Part shown: one piece after another, positions 5,682 through 22,678 of the stretch
Layout of the letters: each line of letters opens with the position of its first letter
Numbering within the stretch: position 1 is the first letter of the stretch
Source: Anaerolineae bacterium
GTDB lineage: Bacteria; Chloroflexota; Anaerolineae; B4-G1; DUEL01
Assembly: GCA_041082215.1 (NCBI GenBank)
Contig: JBDOIF010000043.1
Span: 1 to 43,463 of the forward strand
Reading direction: 5' to 3'
Length of the DNA stretch: 43,463 nucleotides
Notes under the pieces: generated by a model
Told to the model about the DNA's origin: nothing
The model's database searches: none
The model's input: only the letters and a program-made list of their open reading frames with translations
Translations under genes and position numbers: made by a program

Positions 5682-6961
5682 AGAACAACCGGGAGCGGTT
5701 GGCCTGGTTCATCCTCCTGTTCTCTTTCTTTCTCTGCGTGGTGCTTGCCGTGGGTACCCCGCTGGGAGTGCAGTATTTCCTGCGGACCGCTTCCGCGTCC
5801 CAGAAGGCATCGCTGGAACCGCAGGAAGGGACGCCCCGGATGCGGCGGCGAGGGCAGGGGGAGGCCATCGCCCTCATCGGGCCGACGTGGGATGTCCCGG
5901 CTGGCACGGTGATCTCCACCGACACCGCAGCCGAGGGGCTGCTCACCCTCTACACGCCCGGCCCGGAGTCCGAGGCGGTGGCCTGGGTGAAGATCTATGA
6001 CCAGACGGAGGTGGTCCTGCGCTATGCCCGGTCTCCCCGTTTTTCGGTCAGCTCGCTCCCTCACAGGGTGGCACTGGAAGTGCGTCTGCCGACCCACCCC
6101 CAGGCAGATCTGTCGCCCGAGCAGACGGGACGGGCTGAGGCCCGCGTGCGGGTCAGCGTGGTGCCAGCGGGAGGCCGGGACACGGTGATGGAGATCCATA
6201 CCTCCCACTTCGTCGCCTTACTCCAGGGGGGAAGCTACGAGATCCGGGTCAGGGATGGGCAGGCCGAGCTGAGCGTCATTGAAGGCACTGCCCAGATCAC
6301 CCCGCCCGACGGCAAAGCAGTCGTGGTGGATCGTTCCCAGCGGGCCGTCGTCCGCTCCGGCTCGGGGAGCGTGGACATCCTGCCCGGGGAACGGAACCTG
6401 CTGAGGAATGGCGACTTCCGCCTGCCGCTGGAGGAGGACTGGCAGGTCTACCATAAGGATGTGCAGCAGAACCCACCAGGCACAGTAGAGGCGATCACCT
6501 TTGCTGGCCGCTCCGTCGCCCGGTTCCACAGGGAGGGGATGGGGCACGCCGAGGTCGGGATCGGGCAGCAGGTCAACTACGATGTTCGGGATTTCACTTC
6601 ACTGGTCTTCCGTCTCAGCGTGCTGATCCAGAACCAGAGCCTGCCCGGATGCGGCCAGTTGGGGTCCGAGTGCCCCATTCTCGTCCGTATAGACTACAAG
6701 GACGTCTACGGGACCGACCGGACCTGGTACCACGGTTTCTTTTCCCAGCCTCCGGGGGGAACCGACCTGCTGAATCCGTGGGACGAACGGATCCCTCCTC
6801 AGGCGTGGTATACCTTTGACTCCGGAAATCTGATTGACCCTGAGAACCCGGTCGGGCCTTTTGAGGTCCCTCCCGCCCTGATCAAAGGGGTCACCATCTA
6901 CGCCTCAGGCCACTCCTTTGAGGCGCTGGTGACGGATGTGGAGCTCCTGGCGCAGGAATAA
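5678..6961 (+). CDS. Single-pass membrane protein with FecR-like beta domain and C-terminal carbohydrate-binding-like domain
   Basis: N-terminal TM helix; beta-rich LSVIEGTAQI-type FecR-like segment; NLLRNGDF start typical of jelly-roll/CBM-like modules; ATGA coupling to acyP. Confidence 0.6.
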   Translation: MKNNRERLAWFILLFSFFLCVVLAVGTPLGVQYFLRTASASQKASLEPQEGTPRMRRRGQGEAIALIGPTWDVPAGTVISTDTAAEGLLTLYTPGPESEAVAWVKIYDQTEVVLRYARSPRFSVSSLPHRVALEVRLPTHPQADLSPEQTGRAEARVRVSVVPAGGRDTVMEIHTSHFVALLQGGSYEIRVRDGQAELSVIEGTAQITPPDGKAVVVDRSQRAVVRSGSGSVDILPGERNLLRNGDFRLPLEEDWQVYHKDVQQNPPGTVEAITFAGRSVARFHREGMGHAEVGIGQQVNYDVRDFTSLVFRLSVLIQNQSLPGCGQLGSECPILVRIDYKDVYGTDRTWYHGFFSQPPGGTDLLNPWDERIPPQAWYTFDSGNLIDPENPVGPFEVPPALIKGVTIYASGHSFEALVTDVELLAQE

Positions 6962-8187
6962 CCCAGCAGCCGGGTCACCCGTTCCATCACGGCTTCGGCA
7001 ACGGCTACTTTACTCATCAGTGGCAGCTCGTCCACCTGCCCTTCCCGGTCCAGGATCGCCACCCGGTTGGTTTCCACCCCGAAGCCTGCGTCGGCGGCGG
7101 TGATGTCGTTGGCGACGATCAGGTCCAGCCGCTTGGCTGCGAGCTTGGCGCGGGCGTTCTCGACCAGGTCCTGGCTTTCGGCAGCGAAGCCGACGACAAC
7201 CCGCGGGAGGCCGGTGTCGGCCCGATGTGCTGCAACTTCGGAAAGGATGTCCGGAGTGCGGGTCAGCCGCAGGGTCAGTTCTCCCTCTCCCTTCTTGATC
7301 TTGTGGGGGGCGGTCTCAACGGGCCGGTAGTCGGCCACCGCGGCGGACATCAGCAGCACGTCGGCATCCTCCACGGCGCTCAGGACCGCGTCCCGCATCT
7401 GGCAGGCAGTGGTCACCTCCACCCGCCGCGCTCCCACCGGCGTGGGGAGGGAGGTGGGACCGGTGATGAGGACGACCCCGGCCCCCCGGTCCAGTGCCGC
7501 CTGGGCCAGCGCAAACCCCTGTCGGCCGGAGGAGGGGTTGCTGAGGAAACGGACGGGGTCGAGGGGTTCCCGGGTGGGGCCGGCGGTGACCACCACCTTT
7601 CGACCGGCCAGCGGCCCTGCCCGTCCCAACACCCGGCGGATGTGGCCCAGTAGCTCCTCCGGCTCGATCATTCTCCCCTCACCCGTAAGGCCCGATGCCA
7701 TCCGGCCGTGGACCGGCCCGGCGAAGTGGACAGAGCGTGTCCGCAGGACCTCCACATTGGCCTGGTTTGCCGGGTGGGCCCACATTCCCGCATCCATCGC
7801 CGGAGCGACCAGCACCGGGCAGGAGGCGGCCAGGGCGAGGGTGGTGAGCAGGTTGTCGGCGATGCCGTGGGCCAGCTTGGCCAGCGTGTTGGCGGTGGCG
7901 GGGGCGATCACCATCAGGTCGGCGGCGTGGGCCAGGCCGATGTGGGCGATGTGGGTGGGCAGCCCCTCGGTGGGCGCGGCCCACAGGTCGGTGTAGACCG
8001 GCCGGCCGGTGAGGGCCTGAAAGGTGAGGGGGGCCACAAAGCGGGTCGCGGCCTCCGTCATCACTACGTCCACCTGCGCCCCGGCCTGGGTCAGGTGGCT
8101 GGCCAGCGTGCAGACCTTGTAGGCGGCGATCCCCCCCGTAACGCCGAGAAGGATGCGCCTGCCGGTCAAAAGAGGAATCGGGTCCAT
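6898..8187 (-). CDS. coaBC: Bifunctional phosphopantothenoylcysteine decarboxylase/synthetase
   Basis: ILLGVTGGIAAYK, APATAN, APAM, VTAGPTREPLDPVRFLSNPSSGRQG, AAVADY, VGFAAE, IVANDI; AAGGAGG RBS before ATG 8187. Confidence 0.95.
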   Translation of the reverse strand: MDPIPLLTGRRILLGVTGGIAAYKVCTLASHLTQAGAQVDVVMTEAATRFVAPLTFQALTGRPVYTDLWAAPTEGLPTHIAHIGLAHAADLMVIAPATANTLAKLAHGIADNLLTTLALAASCPVLVAPAMDAGMWAHPANQANVEVLRTRSVHFAGPVHGRMASGLTGEGRMIEPEELLGHIRRVLGRAGPLAGRKVVVTAGPTREPLDPVRFLSNPSSGRQGFALAQAALDRGAGVVLITGPTSLPTPVGARRVEVTTACQMRDAVLSAVEDADVLLMSAAVADYRPVETAPHKIKKGEGELTLRLTRTPDILSEVAAHRADTGLPRVVVGFAAESQDLVENARAKLAAKRLDLIVANDITAADAGFGVETNRVAILDREGQVDELPLMSKVAVAEAVMERVTRLLGYSCARSSTSVTSASKEWPEA

Positions 8188-8226
8188 CGAACCCTCCTTA
8201 TCCTGCACGGCTCTTGTGGGAACAAC

Positions 8227-8400: not shown

Positions 8401-9165
8401 CTACCGATTCAGCTCGTAGATGATCCTTAGTCCGTGGAGGGTGAGCCAGGGGTCCACCACGTCAATCACTTCTGTCTCGCGGGCGATAATCTCCGCCAGC
8501 CCTCCGGTGGCGACGACGCGGGTCTCGGGGCCCAGTTCCGCCCTGAAGCGGGCCACCATTCCCTCCACCAGCCCTACATAGCCGAAGAGGAGCCCGGACT
8601 GCATGCTGTGGACGGTGTTGCGGCCGATAACGGAGGGAGGGCGGGTGAGCTCGACGCGGGGCAGCTTGGCGGTGCGCTCGAAAAGGGCCTGGGCGGCGAT
8701 ACCGATGCCGGGGGCGATGGCCCCGCCCAGATAGTCCCCTTCGGCGGAGACGGCGTCGAAGGTGGTGGCGGTGCCGAAGTCCACCACACAGGCGGGGACG
8801 CCGTAGAGGGCCCGCACGGCGGCGGCGTCCACCACCCGGTCCGCCCCCACCTCCCGTGGGTTGTCGTACCGGATGCGCACGCCGGTCCGCACCCCTGCGT
8901 CCACCACCAGCGGCTCCTGGCCCAGGTATTCCCGGCAGGCCTGAACGAAGGTGGGGGTGAGGGGAGGGACGACGCTGGCGATGGCGATGCCGGTCACCTC
9001 TTCCGGCCGGTGGCCCCGATGGCGGAAGAGCTGGTCCATCAGGATGCCGTATTCGTCGGGCATCTTGTCGTGGATGGTGCGGATCCGCCAGCTTGGGCCG
9101 AGCTTTTCCCCTTCGTAAAGGCCAAAGGTGATGTTGGTGTTGCCGATATCTATAGCCAGCAACAT
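8401..9165 (-). CDS. coaX: Type III pantothenate kinase
   Basis: LAIDIGNTN, SVVP, VGADR, VDFGTATT, GGAIAPG, ATGG; AAAGGAGG RBS before ATG 9165. Confidence 0.95.
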   Translation of the reverse strand: MLLAIDIGNTNITFGLYEGEKLGPSWRIRTIHDKMPDEYGILMDQLFRHRGHRPEEVTGIAIASVVPPLTPTFVQACREYLGQEPLVVDAGVRTGVRIRYDNPREVGADRVVDAAAVRALYGVPACVVDFGTATTFDAVSAEGDYLGGAIAPGIGIAAQALFERTAKLPRVELTRPPSVIGRNTVHSMQSGLLFGYVGLVEGMVARFRAELGPETRVVATGGLAEIIARETEVIDVVDPWLTLHGLRIIYELNR

Positions 9166-9338: not shown

Positions 9339-9366
9339 ATTATATTTCAACGCGGGCGGGTGTCAA
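9339..9366 (-). promoter_or_regulatory. Consensus sigma70-type promoter of coaX
   Basis: Minus strand TTGACA (9366-9361), 16-bp spacer, TATAAT (9344-9339). Confidence 0.8.
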
Positions 9367-9583: not shown

Positions 9584-9615
9584 AAAAGGAGGCGGGGTCC
9601 CGCGGAACCCCGCCT
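9584..9615 (-). terminator. Intrinsic terminator downstream of the panT-like gene
   Basis: Minus strand AGGCGGGGT-tccgcggg-ACCCCGCCT followed by CCTTTT. Confidence 0.65.
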
Positions 9616-9652: not shown

Positions 9653-10195
9653 CTACAGCTTGGATTTGCCCGTGCCTGTTTCGATGCGCTTCCAGGCGAC
9701 CACCACCGCGACGACAATGATGCAGGCTACGATGATCTCAGGAATCCCGTGGGTCACGCCGACGGTCAGGGCGACACCCGGAGCCATATACCCCCGGACC
9801 GTCGCCATGGTCAGCACGAGGACGGTGTTGGTGAGCGTGCCAACGGTGGCGGCGACGATCAGCGCGACGTATTCATTGAACCGCTTGAGGCCCGCATAGG
9901 TGAAGTAGGCAGTGATGCCGATGAAGATACGGGGGAGAATGGCCACCAGAGGGTCTTTGAAGAGGGGGACTGTGGCCTGGAGGAAGCTGAAAATGCCGAA
10001 GATTGTGCCGATGACTCCCCCGACGAGCCAGCCCTCCATGATCCCGCCGATGATGGCCGGCACGTGCATGATGGTGGCATTTCCCGCTGCGGTGGGGACC
10101 GGGATGAAGCCGAGCCGGGTAGCGCCGAGGAGGATCGCGATGGCGGAGAGCACACCAGCGATCACGATCTTACGGACGGTGAAGCCCTTTTCCAT
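9653..10195 (-). CDS. panT: ECF transporter S component, PanT-like (pantothenate)
   Basis: 180-aa all-hydrophobic protein with LGFIPVP, TIMHVPAIIG, ILPRI and GTLTNTVLVL motifs; pantothenate gene context. Confidence 0.8.
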   Translation of the reverse strand: MEKGFTVRKIVIAGVLSAIAILLGATRLGFIPVPTAAGNATIMHVPAIIGGIMEGWLVGGVIGTIFGIFSFLQATVPLFKDPLVAILPRIFIGITAYFTYAGLKRFNEYVALIVAATVGTLTNTVLVLTMATVRGYMAPGVALTVGVTHGIPEIIVACIIVVAVVVAWKRIETGTGKSKL

Positions 10196-10404
10196 CTTGG
10201 TTTACCTCCCTTTCCGTTTAGGATTAGAGCCGATCTCCAGATGAGGAGACAGCCGCCAGGACTGAAGACAGAAAGAGGCAGGCTCATCAGCGGGCATTCC
10301 CCTCTCCTCCCCTGTGCGGTGATCTGCCAGCCCCTGCTCGCCGTTTTCTCCTCTCCTGCCTTCGATGCCTTCGCGAAAGGAATAACACCGCGCCACCCAT
10401 ACGG

Positions 10405-11625
10405 TCACGGCTGCACCACGCCCAGGTAACGCAGCATGGTAAGGACATACAACCGGGTGGCCTCGATGAGCTGGGCGATGTCCAGATATTCGTCTACCTG
10501 ATGGGGGATCTGTGTGTTTCCTGGCCCGCAGGTGACGATGGGAATACTGGCCCATGCATAGAGGATGGTCCCATCGGTGCTGCCCGGCACGCCGCCGTAG
10601 GTCGGCTCTTTCCCGGTGAGGTCGCGGTACGCCTCAGCCATTGTCTGGACCAGCGGCTCGTCCCGGGGCGTGGCGGTGGGGGGCCTGCTGTCCAGCACCT
10701 CCATGGTGAACTCCGCCTCCGAATCGCGCTGGCCGTTCAGGATGGCCCGGATCTGGTCGGCGAGCCGTTCTGGCGACTGGCCGGGGATGAGGCGGATATC
10801 CAGCGTGAGGGTGCCCTCCCCTGGCATAACGTTGTTCTGGGGTTCCCCCGCCACGGGCGAACGGATGATGGTCGGTGTGATGCTGGGCTGCCCCAGGAAG
10901 GGGTGTGAACCGTGGGCCTCGATGGTGGCAGCCTCCAGCGCCTCCAGCTGGGTCAGTGCCCGTCCCAGCGGGTAGATGGGGTTGATCCCTTCCAGAGGCA
11001 TGCAGCCGTGGGACATTTTGCCTTTTGCGGCGATGCGTACCCACATCACCCCTTTCTGAGCGATGCAGAGGCGATTGTCCTCCGGCTCGCAGATCACGGC
11101 GGCGCTCACTCTCTCCGCCCAGCCCTGCCGGACAAAGTGCTTCACCCCCAGCATCAGCCCCTCTTCATCGGCCAGGGCGCCCAGAAGGACGTTCCCCTTC
11201 AGCCGAACGCCGCTTTCGATGACCGCTTTCATCGCGCAGAGGGCGGCCACCAGCCCCCCCTTCATGTCACAGGAGCCGCGCCCGTAAATCCTGCCGTCTG
11301 CAACCTCGCCGCCGAAGGGGTCGTACTTCCATTGGGACCGATCCCCTTCGGTGACCACGTCTGTATGCCCCTCGAACATCAGGGTCTTCTCCCCTTCACC
11401 CTCCAGGACAGCGATCACGTTGGGCCGGCCCGGCGCTGCCTCCTCCCAGTGGGGGGATAGCTCCATCTCCTCCAGCCGCTCCCGAATCCACCGGGCCGCC
11501 TGCTCTTCTGTCTCCCCCTTCTCCGGACGGTAGACGCTGGGGATGCGGACCAGCTCCTGGGTCCATCGGACCACTTCATCGGGATTGATCAGTCGGAGGA
11601 CCTGTTGTTCCAGTTGGGTTAGCAT
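10405..11625 (-). CDS. M20 family metallo-amidohydrolase (ArgE/DapE-like)
   Basis: EGHTDVV, GRGSCDMKGG, DEEG, CEP, SHG and HQVDE metal ligand motifs. Confidence 0.9.
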   Translation of the reverse strand: MLTQLEQQVLRLINPDEVVRWTQELVRIPSVYRPEKGETEEQAARWIRERLEEMELSPHWEEAAPGRPNVIAVLEGEGEKTLMFEGHTDVVTEGDRSQWKYDPFGGEVADGRIYGRGSCDMKGGLVAALCAMKAVIESGVRLKGNVLLGALADEEGLMLGVKHFVRQGWAERVSAAVICEPEDNRLCIAQKGVMWVRIAAKGKMSHGCMPLEGINPIYPLGRALTQLEALEAATIEAHGSHPFLGQPSITPTIIRSPVAGEPQNNVMPGEGTLTLDIRLIPGQSPERLADQIRAILNGQRDSEAEFTMEVLDSRPPTATPRDEPLVQTMAEAYRDLTGKEPTYGGVPGSTDGTILYAWASIPIVTCGPGNTQIPHQVDEYLDIAQLIEATRLYVLTMLRYLGVVQP

Positions 11626-11651
11626 GACCTGCTCCTTGTGCTCATAGGGGT

Positions 11652-12509
11652 TTAAAAGGGAAAGGCGTTGCGGAAGATCGTCATCGCGGCCGAGAAGGCC
11701 AGCATGGTGAAATAGGCGACATAATCCGCGCGTGAGAAGCGGAATTTGACCAGTTTGGTGCGTTTGCGCCCTCCGATATAGCAGCGGGCCTGCATGGCCA
11801 GGATCAGGTCCTCGGCCCGACGGAAGGCGTCTATGAACAGGGGAACGATCAGCACAATGACCTGACGGGTCGTCTGAATGAACTGGAGCTTCCCCTTGGT
11901 GCCAAGGTCAGCACCCCGCGAGGCCTGGGCCTTCATGATGATTTCCAACTGCTCGGCCAGGATGGGTACAAAGCGGAGGGCGGTCGTCCCCACCAGGGCC
12001 AGCTCGTGGCCGGGCACGCCGATCTTGGAGAAGGGGGAGAGCATCGCCTCCATGCCGTTGGTGAGGTCCGAGGTGGTGGTCGTGTTGGTGAGGAGGCTGG
12101 TCAGGAAGAGCAGTTCCAGGAACCGGAGGGTGGAGATAATGACCAGTTGGACGCTCCCGTTGGTGATGTGGATCCAGCCCCAGCGGAGAATGGTCTGCGA
12201 TTCGGCGTTGTAGGGAATGTACGCATCTCCGTAGAAAAGCAACTGCAGGATCGCCAGCACCACGATGAAGGGAATAGCTGGCTTGACCCCGGAGAGGATG
12301 TATTTGAGTGAGATCTTGGAAAGAAGCACAAACCCCAGGCAGGCCAGAAGGAGGATCACGTTGGCCATATAGGAGATATTGAAGGTGATGGCGATGATCA
12401 CAAAGAGCGTGATGGAAATCTTGGCCCGTGGGTCCAGCCGGTGGACCAGGGAATCGCCGGGCAGGTACTGGCCGATCGTTATGTTGCGGAGGAATTCAAA
12501 ATCTTCCAT
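11652..12509 (-). CDS. ecfT: ECF transporter transmembrane T component
   Basis: GQY-x-PGDS-x-x-H-x-LDPRAK, LRFVP, AQASRG, AMQARCY. Confidence 0.92.
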   Translation of the reverse strand: MEDFEFLRNITIGQYLPGDSLVHRLDPRAKISITLFVIIAITFNISYMANVILLLACLGFVLLSKISLKYILSGVKPAIPFIVVLAILQLLFYGDAYIPYNAESQTILRWGWIHITNGSVQLVIISTLRFLELLFLTSLLTNTTTTSDLTNGMEAMLSPFSKIGVPGHELALVGTTALRFVPILAEQLEIIMKAQASRGADLGTKGKLQFIQTTRQVIVLIVPLFIDAFRRAEDLILAMQARCYIGGRKRTKLVKFRFSRADYVAYFTMLAFSAAMTIFRNAFPF

Positions 12510-13357
12510 ATGGCTTCTTTCCCTTCCTGGACGCTGATGACCGTTGTCGGGGGAAGCTTGCCCCGCTGTGCCAGTTCGTGGACGATCTCGGTGATCTGAG
12601 GGACGCCGAGGCCGTAGCGGACCAGTTCTTCGGGACGGGAGAAGACCTCGCGGGTCGTCCCGCTCATCACCGTGCGCCCGTCGTCAATGACGTAGACCCG
12701 GTCCACCAGCTCCGCCACGTCCTCCATATTGGGGGAGACAAAGATCACGGTAAGGCCGTATTCTTCGTGGAGTCGGCTGATGTGCCCCAAAAGCTCCTTG
12801 CGGCTCCTGGGGTCCACACCGGAGGTGGATTCGTCCAGGATGAGGACTTTGGGCCGGAGGGCCAGGACGCCAGCGATGGCAGCCTTCCGCATCTCGCCGC
12901 CGCTGAGGGTAAAAGTGTAGCGGTCCTTGAAGGCCTCAAAGCTCAGCCCCACCATCTCCATCGCCTCCCGCACCCGCTCCCGCACCTCGTCCATCGGGAG
13001 TCCCATCTTGAGGGGGCCGAAGGCTACGTCGTCTCCCACGAACCGCTCGAAGAGCTGCTGTTCGGGGTACTGGAAGACCAGCCCCACCTTCTGCCGCAAC
13101 GCCCGGATGTCAACGGCGGGATCGGCCAGGTCCACCCCGTCCACGATGACCTTCCCCCGTTCCCGGGGGCGGATCAGGCCGTTGAAGTGCTGGACAATGG
13201 TGGATTTTCCCGCACCGGTCCGTCCGATGATCCCCACCGCCTCGCCGGGGTAGATTTCCATCGTCACCCCTTTGAGGGCCGTCACCTCCAGAGGGGTGCC
13301 CCGCAGGTAGTTGTGGTGCAGGTCGTTGACCTGGATGATCGGCTCTCTACCCTCCAT
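12479..13357 (-). CDS. ecfA2: ECF transporter ATPase A'
   Basis: GRTGAGKST, VFQYPEQQLF, LSGGE, ILDES. Confidence 0.9.
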   Translation of the reverse strand: MEGREPIIQVNDLHHNYLRGTPLEVTALKGVTMEIYPGEAVGIIGRTGAGKSTIVQHFNGLIRPRERGKVIVDGVDLADPAVDIRALRQKVGLVFQYPEQQLFERFVGDDVAFGPLKMGLPMDEVRERVREAMEMVGLSFEAFKDRYTFTLSGGEMRKAAIAGVLALRPKVLILDESTSGVDPRSRKELLGHISRLHEEYGLTVIFVSPNMEDVAELVDRVYVIDDGRTVMSGTTREVFSRPEELVRYGLGVPQITEIVHELAQRGKLPPTTVISVQEGKEAIWKILNSSAT

Positions 13358-14214
13358 CAGCGCACCCTCCCATTTCGCCGGCAGACCTCTTCCACGACCT
13401 CCTGGACGGTGAGGAGGTCGGGTGGGAAGTCGGGCCTCAGTTTGTGGAGCTCGTAGGCTACCTCGGTGGGCTGGGGCACATCCAGCATCAGCTCCCGCAG
13501 CGCCTCCACCTGACTGAACACCTCGCGGGGCGTGCCCTCCATCACAATACGCCCTGCCTCCATCACGATCACCCGGTTCCCCTCCGTGGCCTCGTGCATA
13601 AAGTGGGTGATGGCGATGACCGTGATCCCCTCTTCCTGATTCAGCCGCCGCACCGCCTTCAGCACCTCATTCCTGCCAACGGGGTCCAGCATGGCGGTGG
13701 ATTCGTCCAGGACCAGCACGTCGGGCTTCATGGCCATCACACCGGCGATAGCCACCCGCTGCTTCTGACCGGCGGAAAGGCGGTGGGGCGCCCGGTGGCG
13801 GTAGGGCAGCATGTCCACCACGCCGAGGGCCCACTCGACCCGCCGTTCGATCTCCTCGGGAGGAAGCCCCAGGTTCTCGGGGCCAAAAGCTACGTCGTGT
13901 TCCACCAGGGTGGCGACGATCTGATTGTCGGGGATCTGGAACACCATCCCCACGCTGCTGCGGATGTCCAGGGTGTGCTGGGGGTCTTTTGTGTTCATCC
14001 CCTTCACCCAGACGTCCCCTTCTGTGGGCAGGAGCAGGGCGTTCAGATGCTTGGCCAGGGTGGATTTGCCGGACCCGTTGTGCCCGACGATCACGAGGTA
14101 GTCCCCCCGATAGAGGGAGAGGTTGATGTTGCGGAGGGCGATGATGGGGTTTGCCGATTCGGCGTTGTAGGCGAAGGTTACGTTCTCCACTCGAATGATG
14201 GGTTCTTCGGACAA
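13357..14214 (-). CDS. ecfA1: ECF transporter ATPase A
   Basis: GHNGSGKST, VFQIPDNQIV, LSAGQKQR, VLDESTAMLDP; TTG start. Confidence 0.9.
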   Translation of the reverse strand: MSEEPIIRVENVTFAYNAESANPIIALRNINLSLYRGDYLVIVGHNGSGKSTLAKHLNALLLPTEGDVWVKGMNTKDPQHTLDIRSSVGMVFQIPDNQIVATLVEHDVAFGPENLGLPPEEIERRVEWALGVVDMLPYRHRAPHRLSAGQKQRVAIAGVMAMKPDVLVLDESTAMLDPVGRNEVLKAVRRLNQEEGITVIAITHFMHEATEGNRVIVMEAGRIVMEGTPREVFSQVEALRELMLDVPQPTEVAYELHKLRPDFPPDLLTVQEVVEEVCRRNGRVR

Positions 14215-14258
14215 ATAGCACCCCCTTTTTTCGCTGTGGGTATCCGTTCAGTCTGTGG

Positions 14259-15239
14259 TTATCCTCCCACTGATCCAAGGTCGCCGGGGGCCGGGATACC
14301 CCCCAGGGAGGAGGCCCTGGTGACAGCGCGGACGACGGCCTCCGCCATCGCTTCGGCGGCGAAAGCGCCCAGGATGCTCACGTCCGGCCTTTCTTCTGCT
14401 TCTCCTGTTGCCAGGGCGAAGATCGCGTCCCCATCCCACATTGTGTGGATGGGGCGGATGGTGCGCGCCAGCCCGTCGTGGGCCATCTGGGCCATCTTGT
14501 TCGCTTCCTCTTTGCTCAGGCGGGCGTTAGTGGCGACAACCCCGATCGTGGTGTTCGTGGCGGGGAAGCCCCGTGCCGCACCGGCCAGCCCATGGCGGAG
14601 GGCCTGCATCGTATCCAGGAATCGGCCGCTCTGGGGATCGCGCGTGCCGGCCAGGATTTGGCCGGTCTGGGGGTCCACCACGTCGCCGAAGGCGTTGACG
14701 GCGACCAGGGCAGCCACGATGATGGGGCCCAGGTGGATGCTGGCCGTGCCCACCCCGGACTTGGTGGCGTAGAAGGGGCCGAGAAGCTTCCCCACCGTGG
14801 CCCCGGTGCCCGCTCCTACCGAGCCTTCGGCCACAGGGCCATCGGTGGCCGCTTCGCAGGCGGCGTAGCCAGCGGCCGCATTGGGGCGGGCGGAGGGGCT
14901 GCCGATGGTGAGGTCGAACAGGACGGCGGCGGGGACGATGGGGACTCTGGCGACGCCCGTGTCGAACCCTATCCCCCGCTCCTCCAGGAAGCGCATCACC
15001 CCGCCGGCAGCGTCCAGGCCAAAGGCGCTGCCTCCGGCCAGCAGAACAGCGTGGACCTCCTGTACCAGGCGGGTGGGGCGCATCAGGTCGGTCTCCCGGG
15101 TACCCGGCGCAGAGCCACGCACGTCCACCCCGGCGACGGCTCCCTGAGGGCAGAGGACCACTGTGCAACCGGTGATTCCGTTCAGGTCTGTGTAATGGCC
15201 AACCCGGATCCCCCGGATATCTGTGATACCGTTGCCCAT
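14259..15239 (-). CDS. P1 (DmpA/ThnT-like) autoproteolytic amidohydrolase
   Basis: ITDI-x-GIRVGH, RGSAPGTRETD, GGSAFGL, VPIVP, GAGTGA, NTT (Thr nucleophile type), HTMWDGD; AGGAG RBS before ATG 15239. Confidence 0.88.
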   Translation of the reverse strand: MGNGITDIRGIRVGHYTDLNGITGCTVVLCPQGAVAGVDVRGSAPGTRETDLMRPTRLVQEVHAVLLAGGSAFGLDAAGGVMRFLEERGIGFDTGVARVPIVPAAVLFDLTIGSPSARPNAAAGYAACEAATDGPVAEGSVGAGTGATVGKLLGPFYATKSGVGTASIHLGPIIVAALVAVNAFGDVVDPQTGQILAGTRDPQSGRFLDTMQALRHGLAGAARGFPATNTTIGVVATNARLSKEEANKMAQMAHDGLARTIRPIHTMWDGDAIFALATGEAEERPDVSILGAFAAEAMAEAVVRAVTRASSLGGIPAPGDLGSVGG

Positions 15240-15292
15240 AGCACCTCTCCTGTACACGTCTGGATTCCGAGGGGAGAACAAACTGCGGGGAT

Positions 15293-15335
15293 AGTCGTCT
15301 GTCGACATTATACTACAGACAATGCAATCCGTCAA
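15293..15335 (-). promoter_or_regulatory. Promoter of the P1-ECF-M20-panT operon with overlapping operator box
   Basis: Minus strand TTGACG (15335-15330), 17-bp spacer, TATAAT (15312-15307), running directly into the TGTCGACA palindrome (15300-15307). Confidence 0.8.
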
Positions 15336-15344
15336 GCAGGTTGA

Positions 15345-15391
15345 TTGACAACGGCCAGAAAGCATGATACACTATATGTCGACTGTAGACA
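15345..15391 (+). promoter_or_regulatory. Promoter of gntR-panB-panE with overlapping operator box
   Basis: TTGACA (15345-15350), 17-bp spacer, extended TG-n-TACACT (15365-15373), then TGTCGACTGTAGACA (15377-15391). Confidence 0.8.
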
Positions 15392-15432
15392 AATTGTTGG
15401 GCGACTCCCCCCTCTCCCCTGGGCGGTGAGAA

Positions 15433-16125
15433 ATGAGCAATGAAGAGCTGACCCTTCCCAAGGTCTCGTACAGGTCCCTGCGGGTCGCGGCCTACGCCGC
15501 GATCCGCGAAGCGATCCTCGCCGGGCAGCTTAAGCCAGGCGAGCGCCTCGTCGAGGCGGAGCTGGCGCAGCAGTTGGGCATCAGCCGTGCCCCTGTGCGG
15601 GAGGCGATCCGACAGCTGGAGTCGGAGGGGCTGGTCGTCGGCCTCCCCCATCGGGGCGCCTTCGTGGTCCGGCTCTCCCCGCAGGACCTCTGGGAAATCT
15701 ACACCCTTCGCGCCGCCGTGGAAGGCCTGGCCGTCCGGCTGGTGGCCTCTGCTCCCGACCCGGAGGTGATGCAGAGGCTGGAGGAGCTGGTCCATCGGAT
15801 GCGGGAAGCGGCCAGGAAGGATCAGAGAAAAGAGCTTCCCCGCCTCGACCTCCTCTTCCACGAGACGATCTGCCAGGCCGCCGGCCACCGTCGGCTTCTT
15901 GAAGCCTGGCAGGGCATGTATGCCCAGGTCCAGATGTTCATCTCCATCAGCGGCCACTACGAGGTCCCTCCCCAACAACTGGTAGCTTACCACGAAGAGG
16001 TCCTGGAGGCAATCCGCAAAGCAGACCCGGGGCGGGCCGAAAGGCTGCTCAGGGAGCATATCCTGACGGTGGGTGAGCGCATCGTCGCCACGCTGCAGGC
16101 AAAGGGGAATGAGGAGCAAGGATAA
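15433..16125 (+). CDS. GntR family regulator with FCD domain
   Basis: wHTH LKPGERLVEAELAQQLGISRAPVREAIRQLESEGLV; FCD motifs RAAVEG, DLLFH, H-x-x-VLEAI. Confidence 0.93.
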   Translation: MSNEELTLPKVSYRSLRVAAYAAIREAILAGQLKPGERLVEAELAQQLGISRAPVREAIRQLESEGLVVGLPHRGAFVVRLSPQDLWEIYTLRAAVEGLAVRLVASAPDPEVMQRLEELVHRMREAARKDQRKELPRLDLLFHETICQAAGHRRLLEAWQGMYAQVQMFISISGHYEVPPQQLVAYHEEVLEAIRKADPGRAERLLREHILTVGERIVATLQAKGNEEQG

Positions 16126-16176
16126 GGGTGCGGCTGGTAAAACCGCTCTACAGACTGATTTTATGGAGGCAGAAGC

Positions 16177-17025
16177 ATGGAGCGCAAGAAAGTAACGATC
16201 GTTGACCTTCAGGAGAAGAAGGAACGGAGGGAGCCGATCACGATGGTCACCGCCTATGATTACCCGACCGGCCTTCTTGTAGACCAGGCAGGAATTGATA
16301 TCGTCCTCGTTGGGGACTCGCTGGCGATGGTGGTGCTGGGGCACGAGAACACCGTCGAGGTCACGATGGAGGAGATGCTCCATCACTGCAAGGCGGTCGC
16401 CCGCGGGGCCAGGTATCCTCTCCTGGTGGGGGATATGCCCTTTATGTCCTATCAGGTCCACCGCCGGGAGGCGATCCGCAACGCCGGCCGTTTCCTCAAG
16501 GAGGGCCGGATGGACGTGGTGAAGCTGGAGGGCGGCCTGGAAATGGCTGAGACGGTGAAGGCCATCGTGGATGCGGGGATCCCGGTGATGGGGCACATCG
16601 GACTGACCCCCCAGACGATCTCGAAGCTCGGGGGGTTCAGGGTGCAGGGCAAGAGCGTCGAGGCGGCCAGGAAGCTTGTGGAGGACGCCCGCGCACTGGA
16701 AGAGGCAGGGGCTTTCGCCATCATCCTCGAAGCTGTCCCCGACCGGCTGGCTGCTCTGATCACCGAACGGGTGCGCGTGCCCACCATCGGCATCGGCGCG
16801 GGCCCTCACTGCGATGGCCAGGTGCTCGTCCTCCACGATATGATCGGCCTCTTCGACCGCTTTACCCCCAAGTTCGTCAAGCGGTACGCCAATATCTTTC
16901 CCATCGTTGTGGAAGCTCTGACCCGGTACAGGCAGGAGGTACTGGATGGGACCTTCCCCCAGCCGGAGCACTGCTTCACGATGAAGGATGAGGTGTACGA
17001 GGCGCTGCTGGCGGAGCTGGGGTGA
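16177..17025 (+). CDS. panB: 3-methyl-2-oxobutanoate hydroxymethyltransferase
   Basis: TAYD, LVGDSL, DMPF, VKLEGG, GHIGLTPQ, IGIGAG, DGQVLV. Confidence 0.96.
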   Translation: MERKKVTIVDLQEKKERREPITMVTAYDYPTGLLVDQAGIDIVLVGDSLAMVVLGHENTVEVTMEEMLHHCKAVARGARYPLLVGDMPFMSYQVHRREAIRNAGRFLKEGRMDVVKLEGGLEMAETVKAIVDAGIPVMGHIGLTPQTISKLGGFRVQGKSVEAARKLVEDARALEEAGAFAIILEAVPDRLAALITERVRVPTIGIGAGPHCDGQVLVLHDMIGLFDRFTPKFVKRYANIFPIVVEALTRYRQEVLDGTFPQPEHCFTMKDEVYEALLAELG

Positions 17026-17075
17026 GACGCGGGGAGGGGGTGATGCGGGGACGCGGAGATACGGAGGGAGAAGCA

Positions 17076-17999
17076 GTGAGGATCGGGGTGATCGGTTCCG
17101 GGGCGATGGGTTGTCTCTATGGGGCCTACCTCTCCCGGGTGGCGGAAGTAGTCCTCTTCGACTCCTGGGAAGCGCACGTGGAGGCGATCCGTGAACAGGG
17201 GCTGTTCCTGGAGGAACTGGACGGATCTCAGGAGTGTTTCCGGCTCCCGGCCACGACGAAGGTCGGGGAGGTGGGGGAGGTTGATCTGGCGCTGGTCTTC
17301 GTCAAATCCCACCAGACCGCCTGGGCGGCGGAGGTGGTTCGGACGGTCCTGCGGCCAGAAGGGATCGCCCTCACGCTCCAGAATGGCGTGGGGAACCGGG
17401 AGGTGCTGGCCCGGGCGCTGGGGGAGGAGCGGGCGCTGCAGGGGGTAACGGCCCACGGGGCCACGCTCCTGGGACCGGGGCGGGTCCGGCATGCGGGCCA
17501 GGGCCCCACCCATCTGGCCCTCTCCCCCGTCACCGGGGAGTGGGTGGAGCGGATCGCGGAGCTCTTCCAGGCAGCCGGGCTGGAGGTCCATCTCTCCGAG
17601 GACCTGGACGGGTTGATCTGGGGGAAGCTGCTGATCAACGTGGGGGTCAACGCGCTCACGGCGATCCTGCGAGTGCCCAACGGCCATCTGGTGGAGAACC
17701 CTCCGGCGCGGGAAGTGATGGGGCTGGCAGTGCGGGAGGCCGCGGCTGTGGCCGGGGCCATGGGAGTGCGGCTGCCGTACCCCGATCCGGTGGGACGGGC
17801 AGAGGAGGTCTGCCGGGCGACGGCGGCCAACCGCTCCTCCATGCTCCAGGACGTGTTGCGGGGAAGTCCCACGGAGATTGACGTCATCAACGGGGCCATC
17901 GTCCGGGAGGGGGAGCGGCTCGGGCTAGCGACCCCCGTGAACAGGCTGCTGACGCTTCTGGTGAAGGCGATCGAGCAGAGTTATAATGTGCGGGTCTGA
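17076..17999 (+). CDS. panE: Ketopantoate reductase family protein
   Basis: GSGAMG, VKS, LQNG, WGKL-x-IN, SSMLQD, TEID-x-ING; GTG start at 17076 with GGAGG RBS. Confidence 0.92.
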   Translation: MRIGVIGSGAMGCLYGAYLSRVAEVVLFDSWEAHVEAIREQGLFLEELDGSQECFRLPATTKVGEVGEVDLALVFVKSHQTAWAAEVVRTVLRPEGIALTLQNGVGNREVLARALGEERALQGVTAHGATLLGPGRVRHAGQGPTHLALSPVTGEWVERIAELFQAAGLEVHLSEDLDGLIWGKLLINVGVNALTAILRVPNGHLVENPPAREVMGLAVREAAAVAGAMGVRLPYPDPVGRAEEVCRATAANRSSMLQDVLRGSPTEIDVINGAIVREGERLGLATPVNRLLTLLVKAIEQSYNVRV

Positions 18000-18023
18000 A
18001 AGAGCGCTCAAACAAATGGATCG

Positions 18024-18121
18024 CCGCTGAGGCGCAGAGGGCGCAGAGATGGGTCGTGGACGTGGAGAGGCGCTGAACAGGAAAGGCTCCGCCAGGCTCT
18101 GCGTCCTCTGTGCTTTTACGG
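18024..18121. repeat. REP-like inverted repeat of 9-mer units (GCAGAGG[A/G]C)
   Basis: Arms CCGCTGAGGCGCAGAGGGCGCAGAG (18024-18048) / CTCTGCGTCCTCTGTGCTTTTACGG (18097-18121). Confidence 0.7.
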
Positions 18122-18146
18122 TTCAGACGCTAACGGGAGGAGCAAA

Positions 18147-19496
18147 ATGGACGTAAAGAAAGGCTTATCGGCGGAGGAGATCGTCCGGCTGAACCGGGAG
18201 TACACTTTCTTCTCCTGGACAGCCCAGGCAGCGGTGGACCCGATCCCTGTGGTCCGGGGTGAGGGGGTGTACTTCTGGGATGCCAGCGGGAAGCGGTATA
18301 TTGATTTCGCCTCCCAGTTGATGAACCTCAACATCGGCCACCAGCACCCCAAAGTGGTCCGGGCCATCCAGGAGCAGGCCAGCCGCCTCTGCTACGCCTA
18401 CCCGGGGATGGCGACGGAGCCGCGGGGGCTTCTGGGGCGCATGCTGGCGGAGGTGACCCCTGGCCGGTTGAAGAAGTCCTTCTTCTGCCTGGGCGGGGCG
18501 GAGGCGAACGAGAACGCTATCAAGATCGCCCGTATGGTCACCGGCCGCTGGAAGGTCATCGCCCGGTACCGCTCCTACCACGGCGCAACGCACGGAGCCA
18601 TCGCCCTCACCGGCGAACCCCGCCGCTGGCCGGCTGAGCCAGCGATGCCAGGGGTGATCCACGTCTTCGATCCTTACTGCTACCGGTGCCACTTCGGCTG
18701 GACCCCCGAAACCTGCCATCGGGAATGCATCACCCATATCGAGGACGTGATCCGCTTTGAGGGGCCGGAGAACATTGCAGCGGTTCTGATGGAGGGGGTG
18801 ACCGGCTCCAACGGCATCATCGTCCCGCCGGACGACTACTGGCCGCGGATCCGGGAGATCTGCGATCGGTACGGCATCCTCCTGATCTCCGACGAGGTGA
18901 TGAGCGGGTTCGGGCGGACCGGCAGGTGGTTTGCGGTGGACAATTGGGGGGTGGAGCCGGATATGATCACGATTGCCAAGGGGCTAACTTCCGGCTATGT
19001 GCCACTGGGCGCGGTGGTGGTCTCTGAGGCCATCGCCGACCATTTTGAGGATCACGTCCTCTGGTGCGGGCTGACCTACAGTGGCCACACGCTGGCCTGC
19101 GCCGCCGCCATCGCCACGCTTCAGGTGTACCAGGAGGATGGCCTTATCGAGAACGCTGCCCGGATGGGCCGGGTGCTGGGGCGTCGGCTGGAGGAGCTGA
19201 AAGAGCGCCATCCCTCGGTGGGGGACGTGCGGTATATCGGCCTCTTCTCGGTCATCGAGGTGGTGAAGGACCGGAAGACGAAAGAGCCGATGGCCCCCTG
19301 GAACGCCAAATCCTCGGAGATGGGGGCGATGGGGGAACTGGCGAAGTTCCTCCGGCAGAATGGCCTCTATACTTTTGTGCGGTGGAACTGGGTCTTTGTT
19401 GTCCCCCCTCTGTGCATCAACGAAGCCCAGATGGATGAGGGATTGGCGATCATTGACGAGGCGCTGAAGATCACCGACGGGGCCTGCACGGGCTGA
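18147..19496 (+). CDS. Class III PLP aminotransferase (omega-amino acid; beta-alanine/taurine-type)
   Basis: GGAEANE, SYHG, SDEVMSGFGRTG, AKGLTSGYVPLG, GLTYSGH. Confidence 0.9.
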   Translation: MDVKKGLSAEEIVRLNREYTFFSWTAQAAVDPIPVVRGEGVYFWDASGKRYIDFASQLMNLNIGHQHPKVVRAIQEQASRLCYAYPGMATEPRGLLGRMLAEVTPGRLKKSFFCLGGAEANENAIKIARMVTGRWKVIARYRSYHGATHGAIALTGEPRRWPAEPAMPGVIHVFDPYCYRCHFGWTPETCHRECITHIEDVIRFEGPENIAAVLMEGVTGSNGIIVPPDDYWPRIREICDRYGILLISDEVMSGFGRTGRWFAVDNWGVEPDMITIAKGLTSGYVPLGAVVVSEAIADHFEDHVLWCGLTYSGHTLACAAAIATLQVYQEDGLIENAARMGRVLGRRLEELKERHPSVGDVRYIGLFSVIEVVKDRKTKEPMAPWNAKSSEMGAMGELAKFLRQNGLYTFVRWNWVFVVPPLCINEAQMDEGLAIIDEALKITDGACTG

Positions 19497-19503
19497 TCGG
19501 AGA

Positions 19504-19569
19504 AGACACGGAGACACGGGGGACGTGGAGAAAGCAGAGAACTCCGCGTCCTCCGTGTCTCTCTGTGGT
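19504..19569. repeat. REP-like 20-bp hairpin between convergent genes
   Basis: GAGACACGGGGGACGTGGAG (19511-19530) / CTCCGCGTCCTCCGTGTCTC (19542-19561); half-sites of the same family at ~5346-5373 and ~17024-17066. Confidence 0.7.
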
Positions 19570-19581
19570 AGGGTCAGCAAA

Positions 19582-21051
19582 CTATATCTCTCGCAGCAGC
19601 CCGGTCATCTCGTTGAATCGGGTGATCAGGGCGTCTATCTCCTCCACCTGTCCGTGGATGCCGGTCCAGTAGTCGGGATCGTACCACTGGGCCTGGATCT
19701 CCTCGTAGGTCTTTCCCTGCTGCTCCACCCAGGTGTAGTACTTGAGGTTGTGGATGCGGCGGCGGTCCCAGTATCCCAGCTCGAACACGTAGTCCACCGT
19801 ACATCCCAGGAGATAACGGTGGTAATCGGCGGCGGCGTCCAGCTCGGTGTACTCCCCCCGCTCCTGCCGCAGCTCCAGCAGCCGGCTCTGGTAAAGCTCC
19901 ATCGAGTCGGTGAAGACGGTAAGGACCACGTCGTGTTCTCCCAGCTCATACCACCTGGCGAACTTGATGGCGGAGAGGACGTTGGCGATACTGGAGATGC
20001 CCAGGAGGTCGAGCCGCTCCACCAGCCCTTCCGGCACCCCTCGCTTCAGCAGATAGGCCCGCCCGGCCGGCTCGTTGAAGAGCCGTACCAGGCTCATGCA
20101 GGCCTCGTCGTCTATGGCCATCACCATATCGGTGTTGCGGACGTTGTGGATCCAGGGGACGTGCTTGTCGCCGATCCCCTCGATGCGGTGGCCGCCGAAG
20201 CCGTTGAGGATCAGGGTGGGGCACTGGAGCGCCTCGCTGGCGGCGACCTTGCTGGTGGGGAAGACCTTCTTCAGATAATCCCCGCAGCCGATGGTGCCGG
20301 CCGAGCCGGTGGTGAGCACCACCCCCCGGTAGGTGTCCCGCGGCCCCAGCTCCTGCTGGAGGACCTCCTCCATCGCGTGGCCGGTGACCTCGTAGTGCCA
20401 GAGGTGGTTGCCGAACTCCTCGAACTGGTTGAAGATAAAGACGTCCTCCCGCGTCTCCCGCAGCTCCCAGGTTTTGTCGAAGATCTCTTTGACGTTGCTC
20501 TCACAGCCCGGCGTGGCGATCACCTCTCCGGCGAAGCGGGAGAGCCACTCGAACCGTTCGCGGCTCATGCCCTCCGGAAGGATGGCGATGGACTCACAGG
20601 CCAGCAGGGTGGCGTTGTAAGCTCCGCCCCGACAGAAGTTACCGGTGGAGGGCCAGACCGCCTTGTGGTAGGTGGGGTCGAACTGACCGGTGACCAGCCG
20701 GGGCACCAGGCAGCCGAAGGTGGCCCCTACCTTGTGGGAGCCGGTCGGGAACCACTTGCCCACCAGGGCGATGATGCGGGCCGGGACTCCGGTGAGCGCA
20801 GGCGGCAGTTCGACGTAGTTGACCCCGCCGAACCCGCCGCCTGAGGGAACCGGCTCGTTCTTCCAGGTGATGCGGAACAGGTTGAGGGGGTCCACATCCC
20901 ACAGGCCGATCTTCCGTAGCCGTCCCTTGATCCCGTCGGGGATAAGGGAGGGGTCCCTCATCTGAGCGAAGGTGGGGATGACGATCCCCCGCTCGCGGGC
21001 GCGTTGCACCGTCCGATCCAATCGGGTTTTGTTCACGCTCAGATCAATCAT
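19582..21051 (-). CDS. PLP-dependent fold-type II (PALP, cysteine/threonine synthase-like) enzyme of unknown specificity
   Basis: FPTGSHKVG (PLP lysine), STGNF, GSAGT, HRIEGIG, GISS. Confidence 0.82.
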   Translation of the reverse strand: MIDLSVNKTRLDRTVQRARERGIVIPTFAQMRDPSLIPDGIKGRLRKIGLWDVDPLNLFRITWKNEPVPSGGGFGGVNYVELPPALTGVPARIIALVGKWFPTGSHKVGATFGCLVPRLVTGQFDPTYHKAVWPSTGNFCRGGAYNATLLACESIAILPEGMSRERFEWLSRFAGEVIATPGCESNVKEIFDKTWELRETREDVFIFNQFEEFGNHLWHYEVTGHAMEEVLQQELGPRDTYRGVVLTTGSAGTIGCGDYLKKVFPTSKVAASEALQCPTLILNGFGGHRIEGIGDKHVPWIHNVRNTDMVMAIDDEACMSLVRLFNEPAGRAYLLKRGVPEGLVERLDLLGISSIANVLSAIKFARWYELGEHDVVLTVFTDSMELYQSRLLELRQERGEYTELDAAADYHRYLLGCTVDYVFELGYWDRRRIHNLKYYTWVEQQGKTYEEIQAQWYDPDYWTGIHGQVEEIDALITRFNEMTGLLREI

Positions 21052-21064
21052 CGGTTCGCTCTCC

Positions 21065-22509: not shown

Positions 22510-22543
22510 AGATTTGCACCTCCCGTTTTGGGTCTTGAGGGTA

Positions 22544-22571
22544 ATTGTACACCGAACTACAGTCTGGGCAA
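22544..22571 (-). promoter_or_regulatory. Putative promoter for the membrane protein-queA-PLP enzyme unit
   Basis: Minus strand TTGCCC, 16-bp spacer, TACAAT. Confidence 0.5.
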
Positions 22572-22603
22572 GGGATTTCGCGGATTTCACCGTCCCGGGC
22601 AGC

Positions 22604-22631: not shown

Positions 22632-22678
22632 TCCGGCTGGAGCGGCTGTCCGATCGCCGGGTGGAGGGAAGAGGAGGG

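Follow-up and report, generated by a model that had tools for sequence, protein, structure and literature searches.

The Anaerolineae bacterium contig JBDOIF010000043.1 (assembly GCA_041082215.1), a stretch of 43,463 nucleotides with a G+C content of 62-71% that we refer to as the window, carries a divergent gene cluster that we tentatively read as a pantothenate acquisition and turnover locus, repressed by a GntR-family regulator with an FCD domain, in an Anaerolineae-type Chloroflexota bacterium that lacks PanC and PanD. The core of this locus is likely to be a salvage system made up of an energy-coupling factor (ECF) importer of the PanT type, an S58 pantetheinase and the neighbouring CoaX and CoaBC, an assignment that draws on homology to a characterised enzyme and on varied gene context. 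The cluster points to an undescribed form of bacterial recycling of coenzyme A (CoA) fragments.

The data show gene identities, gene absences, conservation, purifying selection and operator motifs; in the mechanism that we propose, the substrates and the flow direction are all inferred. Import of pantothenate and/or pantetheine-type CoA fragments would fall to a dedicated ECF transporter whose S component is PanT-like. The S58 enzyme, a self-processing hydrolase with a threonine nucleophile, would cut the beta-alanyl-cysteamine amide of pantetheine to give pantothenate and cysteamine, and this step would let pantothenate-specific CoaX, and then CoaBC, encoded next door under their own promoter, make use of CoA fragments. 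An M20-family enzyme would hydrolyse pantothenate at its pantoyl-beta-alanine bond; the pantoate set free would pass through PanE and PanB, working in reverse, to 2-oxoisovalerate and methylene-tetrahydrofolate, and an aminotransferase of the NF004718 type would take the released omega-amine (beta-alanine and/or cysteamine). The GntR regulator would bind TGTCGAC-N-GTCGACA-like operators overlapping both divergent promoters. Net flow is taken as hydrolytic because there is no PanC.

A recurring divergent cluster in a genome without PanC and PanD

An earlier note, made from the sequence alone, had described a divergon with a P1 hydrolase (the S58 enzyme below), an ECF module, an M20 amidohydrolase and PanT on one arm and gntR, panB, panE and a class III aminotransferase on the other, beside coaX and coaBC. 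Pfam and NCBIfam profile searches of the window proteins recovered every gene that it had named (ten genes, ~6.9-19.5 kb), with coaX and coaBC as neighbours. At least five more genomes have this divergon, which puts the arrangement far beyond chance. The neighbourhood is kept across several Chloroflexota families, and the other carriers checked mostly lack panC too.

The note had found neither panC nor panD in the window, and this absence extends to the whole source assembly (G000; 3.53 Mb, 174 contigs, 96.13% complete). Genome-wide there was no match to the PanC models TIGR00018 and PF02569 (nine control genomes matched), to the PanD model PF02261 (control genomes matched) or to the archaeal phosphopantothenate synthetase (PPS) model PF02006 (four archaeal controls matched; pantoate kinase was not searched). 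The PanC and PanD proteins of a relative, used as tblastn queries, also found nothing in the genome. By these searches the genome lacks the PanC and PanD steps of canonical biosynthesis through PanB, PanE, PanD and PanC. Most of the genomes compared here were metagenome-assembled, and the absences reported for them depend on completeness, which was 82-100% for those cited.

The type III pantothenate kinase (PanK) gene coaX (8401..9165, minus strand; NF009855, 337 bits, over the cut-off) and coaBC, encoding a bifunctional phosphopantothenoylcysteine synthetase/decarboxylase (6898..8208, minus strand; TIGR00521, 446 bits, over the cut-off), are single-copy in the genome by tblastn, as are panB and the genes for the S58 enzyme and the S component. 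CoaX is the only recognisable PanK: the type I model TIGR00554 reached 43.9 bits against a cut-off of 235, and a search for type II PanK was uninformative, as no control genome matched. According to a passage in a review, type III PanK does not use pantethine or pantetheine, and the pantetheine bypass needs type I PanK. In a CoaX-only organism, pantetheine would therefore be usable only after hydrolysis to pantothenate.

The ECF importer

The S component (9653..10195, minus strand) matches PF12822 (E 3.5e-28, 99 bits) and no NCBIfam model. Its sole significant PDB match is 4RFS chain S, a remote one (E 1.6e-9, 41.5 bits), which we take to be the PanT protein of Levilactobacillus brevis. Homologues of the S component lie directly upstream of coaX in three loci (L032 of genome G037, L075 and L080). 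The match is in line with the earlier suggestion of a PanT-like protein, and the coaX context supports this assignment. The structure of the L. brevis PanT transporter is described in a review (Zhang 2014), where the passage concerned does not name the entry.

By homology, the S-component fold family is present here together with a complete EcfA-EcfA'-EcfT module, encoded on the minus strand by ecfT (11652..12509; PF02361, E 8e-36), ecfA2 or ecfA' (12479..13357; TIGR04521, 324 bits, just below its cut-off of 330; NF010158, 332 bits) and ecfA1 (13357..14214; TIGR04520, 369 bits, over the cut-off). Because three more distant ecfT-like genes were found elsewhere in the genome by tblastn, the window module is, as far as homology goes, a dedicated one.

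The S58 hydrolase as a predicted pantetheinase

The S58 gene probably occupies 14259..15239 on the minus strand, within an open reading frame (ORF) that extends to 15365 (PF03576, E 5e-51). Its PDB relatives are Nyl50 (9CXR, 271 bits), ThnT (212 bits, E 1.5e-61, residues 44-344) and NylC (~125 bits); by homology, the protein is a member of the ThnT/NylC clade of S58 (DmpA/OAT superfamily) N-terminal nucleophile (Ntn) hydrolases. A processing motif N/T is found at ORF residues 271/272, where ATN/TTIGVVATNA aligns with TLN/TTLAVVATDA of ThnT (the slash marks the processing site). All 107 related high-scoring segment pairs keep the nucleophile Thr, and the residue before it is mostly N, sometimes S or H. 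The roles of the Asn-Thr site in cis-autoproteolysis and of the N-terminal Thr as nucleophile come from the literature on ThnT and NylC. In the portions of the reports that bear on these enzymes, ThnT is described as the cis-autoproteolytic pantetheine hydrolase of thienamycin biosynthesis, which converts the pantetheinyl group to cysteamine, and 9CXR as the nylon-6,6 hydrolase Nyl50. The idea that the P1 enzyme removes cysteamine from pantetheine has accordingly gained a homologue known for exactly that step, and it stands as a prediction.

Gene context is the strongest argument for the S58 enzyme as a pantetheinase. We fetched 80 loci with the window S58 protein and counted neighbours within 3 kb. 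In 36 of the 80, coaX, coaBC, panB/C/D/E or a PanT-like gene lay within this distance, against a chance expectation of about 1 in 80 loci (a rough estimate that assumes ~7 such genes per genome and was not computed). A complete panB-panE-panC-panD-coaX-coaBC-S58 operon is present in three relatives (G010, G039 and L083), coaX-coaBC-S58 in five loci (L052, L055, L073, L087 and L113) and S58-panD-panB(-panC) in 11 loci of Dehalococcoidia, and S58 adjoins the S component in L066, L076, G002 and G003. Within the window's order the gene was found in 32 of 41 genomes (23 of 24 in family f1, 8 of 8 in f2, 0 of 8 in f3, and the source genome), and its ratio of nonsynonymous to synonymous substitution rates (dN/dS), measured against L036, L049 and L024, was 0.17-0.23. 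In the window the enzyme probably turns pantetheine into pantothenate for pantothenate-specific CoaX. The earlier note had suggested a salvage or catabolic pathway; because S58 and PanT-like genes adjoin coaX/coaBC in many genomes, including the complete operons, we see its theme instead as pantothenate supply to CoA synthesis, not catabolism of a growth substrate.

A limited literature search found no paper linking the ThnT/NylC clade to CoA salvage, and the main text of the two Nyl50 papers searched contained none of the terms 'pantethe', 'ThnT' and 'natural substrate'.

The closest relative, L036, has two S58 copies in one locus (5247-6215 and ~11101-12100). One copy has the position of the window gene, after the divergent promoter (73% identity); the other, at 62%, is placed as in G008, with M20 on one side and the S component on the other. 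This suggests that the window gene order arose by duplication and loss. In family f33 (L135 12467-15695, L134 5707-8926), S58 is followed by a gene of the histidine phosphatase family and an FAD/BBE-type oxidase gene, with M20 a few genes off and neither panB nor panC in these genomes; this phosphatase could dephosphorylate 4'-phosphopantetheine ahead of S58. In G005, S58 and panB have a gene for a NUDIX-GNAT fusion protein ~3 kb away (L023 7617-8567). A Nudix CoA pyrophosphatase and a GNAT accompany ThnT in the thienamycin pathway, a likeness to the G005 fusion that may or may not be coincidence.

The M20 hydrolase and its association with panB and panE

The M20 gene (10405..11625, minus strand) encodes a predicted dizinc amidohydrolase of the ArgE/DapE family, which passes TIGR01910 (268.9 bits, cut-off 217.6) and reached the cut-off of no equivalog model (DapE, ArgE, YgeY, others). 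Its motifs GHTDVV, CDMKGG, DEEG, CEPE, SHGCMP and PHQVDE align with those of DapE. By this alignment the enzyme keeps the dizinc ligands, the catalytic Glu pair (EE) and the lid-domain His, residues whose roles are presumably those of Haemophilus influenzae DapE.

Orthologues of M20 are rare, occurring in 2 of 41 genomes in the order (E<=1e-60) and in 14 of 401 sampled Chloroflexota (E<=1e-90). Outside family f24, M20 occurred with S58 in 18 of 18 loci examined (the window, L024, L036, L037, L040, L049, L058, L064, L095, L100, L105, L131-L135, L137 and L138; the flanks of L037, L040 and L095 were read only by tblastn with window proteins), and 10 of these 18 also contain panB-panE. The genes form a GntR divergon in the window, L024, L036, L049, L058 and L105, and a divergon without gntR, followed by coaBC and coaX, in L131 and L132. 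Single-strand operons occur in L137 (S58-Scomp-ecfA1-ecfA2-ecfT-M20-panB-panE) and L138 (S58-M20-panB-panE).

Eighteen M20-bearing genomes were checked for panC, a set that left out G135 and G207. Fifteen lack it (G000, G008, G041-G045, G256, G065, G428, G316, G396, G391, G413 and G253), and the three that have it (G292, G380 and G444) all belong to f24. Among the 15 without panC, panB was present in 11 and not found in four, a tally that includes five unpublished genomes on which no claim rests. panD was absent from 6 of 6 M20 genomes tested (G000, G256, G065, G428, G316 and G292). Within family f61, the genus without M20 (G252, G340) has panC beside panB and the genus with M20 (G428, G316, G396) lacks panC; in f33, five genera without M20 have panC, and the genus with M20 has neither panB nor panC.

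That M20 is repeatedly linked to panB-panE in operons argues that the enzyme handles pantothenate or pantoate. The simplest assignment, which makes it a candidate by context, is the pantoyl-beta-alanine bond. Cleavage of that bond, with PanE and PanB linking pantoate to 2-oxoisovalerate, is the most likely single role, although we put it forward with reserve. The broader claim stands just short of an even chance: that it is the M20 protein that acts on the pantoyl-beta-alanine bond, either as the first pantothenase (EC 3.5.1.22) sequence, working with a 'reverse Pan' route, or as an ATP-independent PanC replacement with which Chloroflexota lacking panC and panD could go on producing vitamin B5, and that the S58 protein is the pantetheinase native to bacteria, a role that would also provide the 'nylonase' clade with a natural substrate. 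The protein behind pantothenase was stated to be unknown in part of a 2023 publication.

The f24 stretch L136 (7689-14871, genome G292) has panE and an M20 homologue divergent from panB, which is followed at some distance by panC and a CN-hydrolase gene, with a threonine-aldolase-like gene adjacent; panD is absent from the genome. The nearest NCBIfam model for the CN-hydrolase is N-carbamoylputrescine amidase, below its cut-off, and the enzyme may be the beta-alanine source. The two f24 stretches fetched (G292 and G444) contained no S58.

Selection on panB and panE, and the looser aminotransferase

The right arm of the divergon encodes, on the plus strand, ketopantoate hydroxymethyltransferase (panB, 16177..17025; TIGR00222, 338 bits, and NF001452, 391 bits, both over the cut-off) and a 2-dehydropantoate 2-reductase family protein (panE, 17022..17999; TIGR00745, 285 bits, over the cut-off). 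In comparisons with L036, L049 and L024, dN/dS was 0.08-0.13 for panB and 0.22-0.25 for panE, similar to M20 (0.21-0.24) and S58, with dS of ~0.85-1.7, near saturation. panB and panE are not relics; they are under purifying selection in genomes that lack panC. Within the window's order, panB was found in only 8 of 41 genomes. One of them, G040 of family f3, lacks panC, S58 and M20 and has panB (L028 8420-10748) between genes for Na+-decarboxylase subunits (OadB, biotin carrier, carboxyltransferase) and a gene for a 427-aa protein, which gave no Pfam match and has no homologue in the window's genome.

The class III omega-aminotransferase (18147..19496, plus strand) is over the cut-off of NF004718 (581 bits), and its best PDB relative is the taurine:2-oxoglutarate aminotransferase 6JIX (421 bits). 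Family members follow panE or panB in L036, L049 and G005/L041; in G008, a zinc alcohol dehydrogenase gene (TIGR02822) follows panE instead. The aminotransferase is the least firmly linked member of the locus. Its substrate could be beta-alanine or an amine derived from cysteamine, and the reaction could run either way.

Regulation of the two arms

The regulator gene (15433..16125, plus strand; PF00392 and PF07729) is separated from S58 by 193 bp that contain two copies of a TGTCGAC-N-GTMGACA-like element (operators and divergent promoters together at 15293..15392). Repeats of the TGTCGACA type are kept in 6 of 6 intergenic regions including the window's, and the element is directly beside TATAAT in 5 of 5 orthologous intergenic regions inspected. 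Promoter-like sites in the window gap lie at 15335-15307 (minus strand) and 15345-15373 (plus strand), with one operator copy overlapping the -10 element of the transporter-arm promoter and the other abutting the -10 element of the gntR-arm promoter. A genome-wide search allowing up to 3 mismatches ranked the window operators first, and the best matches to the operator consensus fell only in this intergenic region, giving no sign of a wider regulon.

With a winged helix, an FCD domain and a putative palindromic operator of the GT-N-AC type, the regulator is by sequence a GntR/FCD (FadR-like) protein. Operators so placed are consistent with a GntR protein that represses both arms, and the layout is compatible with an inducer and a co-repressor ligand alike. 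FCD-type GntR control, which the earlier note had taken as a sign of catabolism, does not by itself imply it. No riboswitch or 'pan' RNA motif was seen in the gaps of the locus, where the best Rfam match (E 0.065) was to an irrelevant snoRNA model.

On contig C155 of the same genome (~17971-24913; L116 3971-10913), a perfect palindrome, TGTCAACTGTTGACA, precedes the gene for a paralogous GntR/FCD regulator that shares 35% identity with that of the window. This regulator gene is followed by genes for a LarA-like racemase, a 260-aa protein without a family, a fused double ECF ATPase, EcfT and another class III aminotransferase, by homology a second GntR-controlled ECF 'import and convert' operon.

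Competing explanations

Several observations weigh against the proposed mechanism and against a purely catabolic form of it. The latter is opposed by the vitamin-type ECF importer, the CoA genes next door and the presence of M20 in genomes without panB; ECF transporters scavenge vitamins with high affinity, a property ill suited to catabolic flux, and ketopantoate reductase strongly favours reduction. For S58, 44 of the 80 loci have no visible pan/coa neighbour (some contigs are short), and isofunctionality with ThnT is not proven by homology, since the enzyme scores higher against Nyl50 than against ThnT. For M20, the f24 homologue (42-44% identity) lies between panE and panB-panC in genomes with panC, where a pantothenase would be futile, and four genomes carry M20 and S58 without panB (G045, G391, G413 and G253); in such carriers a pantothenase would destroy an essential vitamin and strand pantoate. 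The claim in the earlier note that the M20 enzyme acts on pantothenate is therefore upheld in part, as a reasonable inference from tight, repeated panB-panE linkage in genomes without panC, and called into question by these panB-less genomes and the f24 homologue. Since G005 and G040 keep panB with neither panC nor an M20 orthologue (perhaps also G002 and G009, which are fragmentary at the locus), retention of panB is independent of M20. The aminotransferase orthologue of G008 is unlinked, on another contig, and close orthologues in G003 and G025 also lie elsewhere. The reading that we rank first, while holding it only provisionally, is that M20 with reversed PanE and PanB, a biochemically orthodox sequence where PanC is missing, serves the salvage locus as a side branch for overflow or recycling and does not support growth as a pathway of its own.

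A different account leaves the salvage core as proposed and has the M20 enzyme hydrolyse another imported conjugate, pantothenoyl-L-cysteine or another N-pantothenoyl or N-acyl amino acid, to pantothenate, with PanB and PanE running forwards to pantoate for a further ligase or another product. The TIGR01910 match places M20 among the ArgE/DapE types, which cleave N-acyl amino acids with a free carboxylate, and hydrolysis of such a conjugate would suit a locus whose theme is supply to CoaX and CoaBC. M20 and S58 persist together in the four genomes without panB and panC, where only a pantothenate-yielding role is sensible, and panB without panC and M20 in G005 and G040 hints at a fate of pantoate independent of M20. 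However, this account does not in itself explain why M20-panB-panE operon linkage should recur in four families, no locus examined contained a candidate ligase, and PPS is absent; we regard it as rather unlikely. The reverse chemistry, with pantoate from PanB and PanE, beta-alanine formed by the aminotransferase from malonate semialdehyde, and an ATP-free condensation of the two by M20 whose unfavourable equilibrium is pulled by CoaX phosphorylation, would make M20 a non-orthologous replacement of PanC. It would explain a classic 'missing gene' pattern, with a panC hole in 11 genomes that keep panB, a co-localised enzyme that handles the right bond type and an anticorrelation of M20 and panC within f61, and it would give every gene of the locus a part in supplying pantothenate to coaX-coaBC next door. 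There is a precedent in mammals, where the M20 enzyme PM20D1 joins acids to amino acids with no need for ATP. Amide formation without activation is, however, thermodynamically poor, and by a rough estimate would give sub-micromolar pantothenate at millimolar substrates. Four M20 genomes without panB, the occurrence of panC together with an M20 homologue in f24, and panB without M20 or panC in G005 and G040 also speak against it, and the source of beta-alanine would be unclear in most carriers, where panD is absent and the aminotransferase not always linked. We judge such biosynthesis improbable.

The two arms might also have no functional link, with panB-panE left over from an ancestral panB-panE-panC-panD-coaX-coaBC-S58 operon and adjacent by descent only. 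Relatives with the full ancestral-type operon (G010, G039, L083) and the loss of panB from most genomes of the order (it was found in 8 of 41) are in keeping with such a history. Against it, at least three families have panC-less genomes in which panB and panE are intact and under purifying selection (dN/dS 0.08-0.25); the two genes have been reshuffled into new M20-containing operons (L137, L138); and divergent promoters bearing operators are common to panB-panE and the transporter arm in 6 of 6 loci. We consider mere descent very improbable as an explanation, and the overflow or recycling branch remains our preferred reading.

Gene starts, transcript boundaries and neighbouring genes

The S58 ORF aligns with its relatives from residue 43 only, M43 is encoded by ATG, and the 126 bases upstream are A+T-richer promoter DNA. 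Because the alignments of the relatives begin there, translation probably starts at M43, giving a gene at 14259-15239 and leaving the 193-bp regulatory region before gntR. The coaX ORF extends to 9312, and the NF009855 alignment begins at residue 50; M50, at 9165, is the most likely start. A terminator-like hairpin (9590..9615, minus strand; 11-bp stem with 8 GC pairs, then a T-rich tail) follows the S-component gene, and a consensus sigma-70-like promoter (9339..9366, minus strand; TTGACA-16-TATAAT, 12/12) lies upstream of coaX, both being pattern matches only. Because the hairpin (9615-9590) and the promoter (9366-9339) intervene, coaX-coaBC, which adjoin the S-component arm, probably form a separate transcript.

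A 427-aa ORF without annotation (5678-6961) adjoins coaBC. Considered as a hidden ligase, it was rejected: it has no family match, looks like a secreted protein with a membrane anchor and shows no relationship to the G040 orphan of 427 aa. Convergent with the aminotransferase gene, a 489-aa protein dependent on pyridoxal phosphate and distantly similar to cysteine synthase (PF00291, 47 bits) is encoded at 19582-21051 on the minus strand; it has a relative in 1 of 80 related loci (L111, 29% identity), where it does not adjoin an aminotransferase. The queA ORF (21065-22768, minus strand; 567 aa) matches the QueA domain from residue 214 only, and thus appears to have either a long N-terminal extension or a first start codon too far upstream; a gene caller based on G+C content at third codon positions (GC3) did not favour this frame in its 5' part. 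A 1298-aa ORF at 22661-26557 (plus strand) combines a TOMM-kinase/cyclase-like NTPase region (88-736) with an OppA-type solute-binding domain (779-1264).

Significance

If the salvage core is as proposed, bacteria with type III PanK only would have a salvage route not described before, through a cytoplasmic pantetheinase whose gene accompanies those for PanT, CoaX and CoaBC. This would change genome-based prediction of vitamin B5 auxotrophy and cross-feeding in Chloroflexota, a phylum abundant in digesters, sediments and the subsurface. For pantothenase, an orphan activity, the M20 gene is a concrete, clonable candidate. The retention of panB-panE under selection without panC in more than 10 genomes is a clean pathway hole, and whether it is resolved by reverse use, by a new ligase or by condensation without ATP, the biochemistry would be new. 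The native substrate of the S58/nylon-hydrolase clade could also guide enzyme mining for polyamide recycling.

Comparison with known systems

The vanins of animals belong to the CN-hydrolase (nitrilase) superfamily, have a fold unrelated to S58 and are extracellular, glycosylphosphatidylinositol-anchored enzymes. The reaction predicted for the window enzyme, pantetheine to pantothenate and cysteamine, is the one that these pantetheinases catalyse, and the logic of turning CoA fragments into vitamin B5 would be the same.

Within the same Thr-nucleophile self-processing clade as the window enzyme, Nyl50, its best solved relative, and NylC (9CXR, 3AXG) cleave amides between aliphatic omega-amino/acyl units that resemble the beta-alanyl-cysteamine amide. 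They are characterised only on synthetic polyamides, and we propose a native pantetheinase role for the clade.

The importer resembles ECF-PanT of L. brevis (4RFS) and PanU of Bacillus subtilis, which have the same EcfA-EcfA'-EcfT module with a small S component. The Bacillota module is shared, whereas that of the window appears dedicated and is encoded with its own S component and two hydrolases; its substrate may be pantetheine instead of, or besides, pantothenate. Uptake of pantothenate by ECF transporters is described in the literature on PanT and PanU.

Compared with the canonical panBCDE pathway, PanB and PanE of the window are bona fide members that score over curated cut-offs, but PanC and PanD are missing here, and panC is missing from 15 of 18 M20-bearing genomes checked. 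In Pseudomonas, pantothenate degradation continues after pantothenase through pantoate 4-dehydrogenase, aldopantoate and dimethylmalate. The window pathway would share with it the first step, from pantothenate to pantoate and beta-alanine (pantothenase, EC 3.5.1.22), and would differ in its later steps, with PanE and PanB running backwards to 2-oxoisovalerate, in its vitamin-type ECF uptake and in its tie to CoA synthesis genes.

The likeness to ThnT of the Streptomyces cattleya thienamycin cluster (3S3U, 3TM1, 4IHD) comprises the same S58/DmpA-OAT fold family and the same predicted cleavage of pantetheine. ThnT delivers cysteamine for an antibiotic, whereas the useful product of the window S58 enzyme would be pantothenate for primary CoA metabolism, and, unlike ThnT, S58 sits in pan/coa/PanT operons across Chloroflexota.

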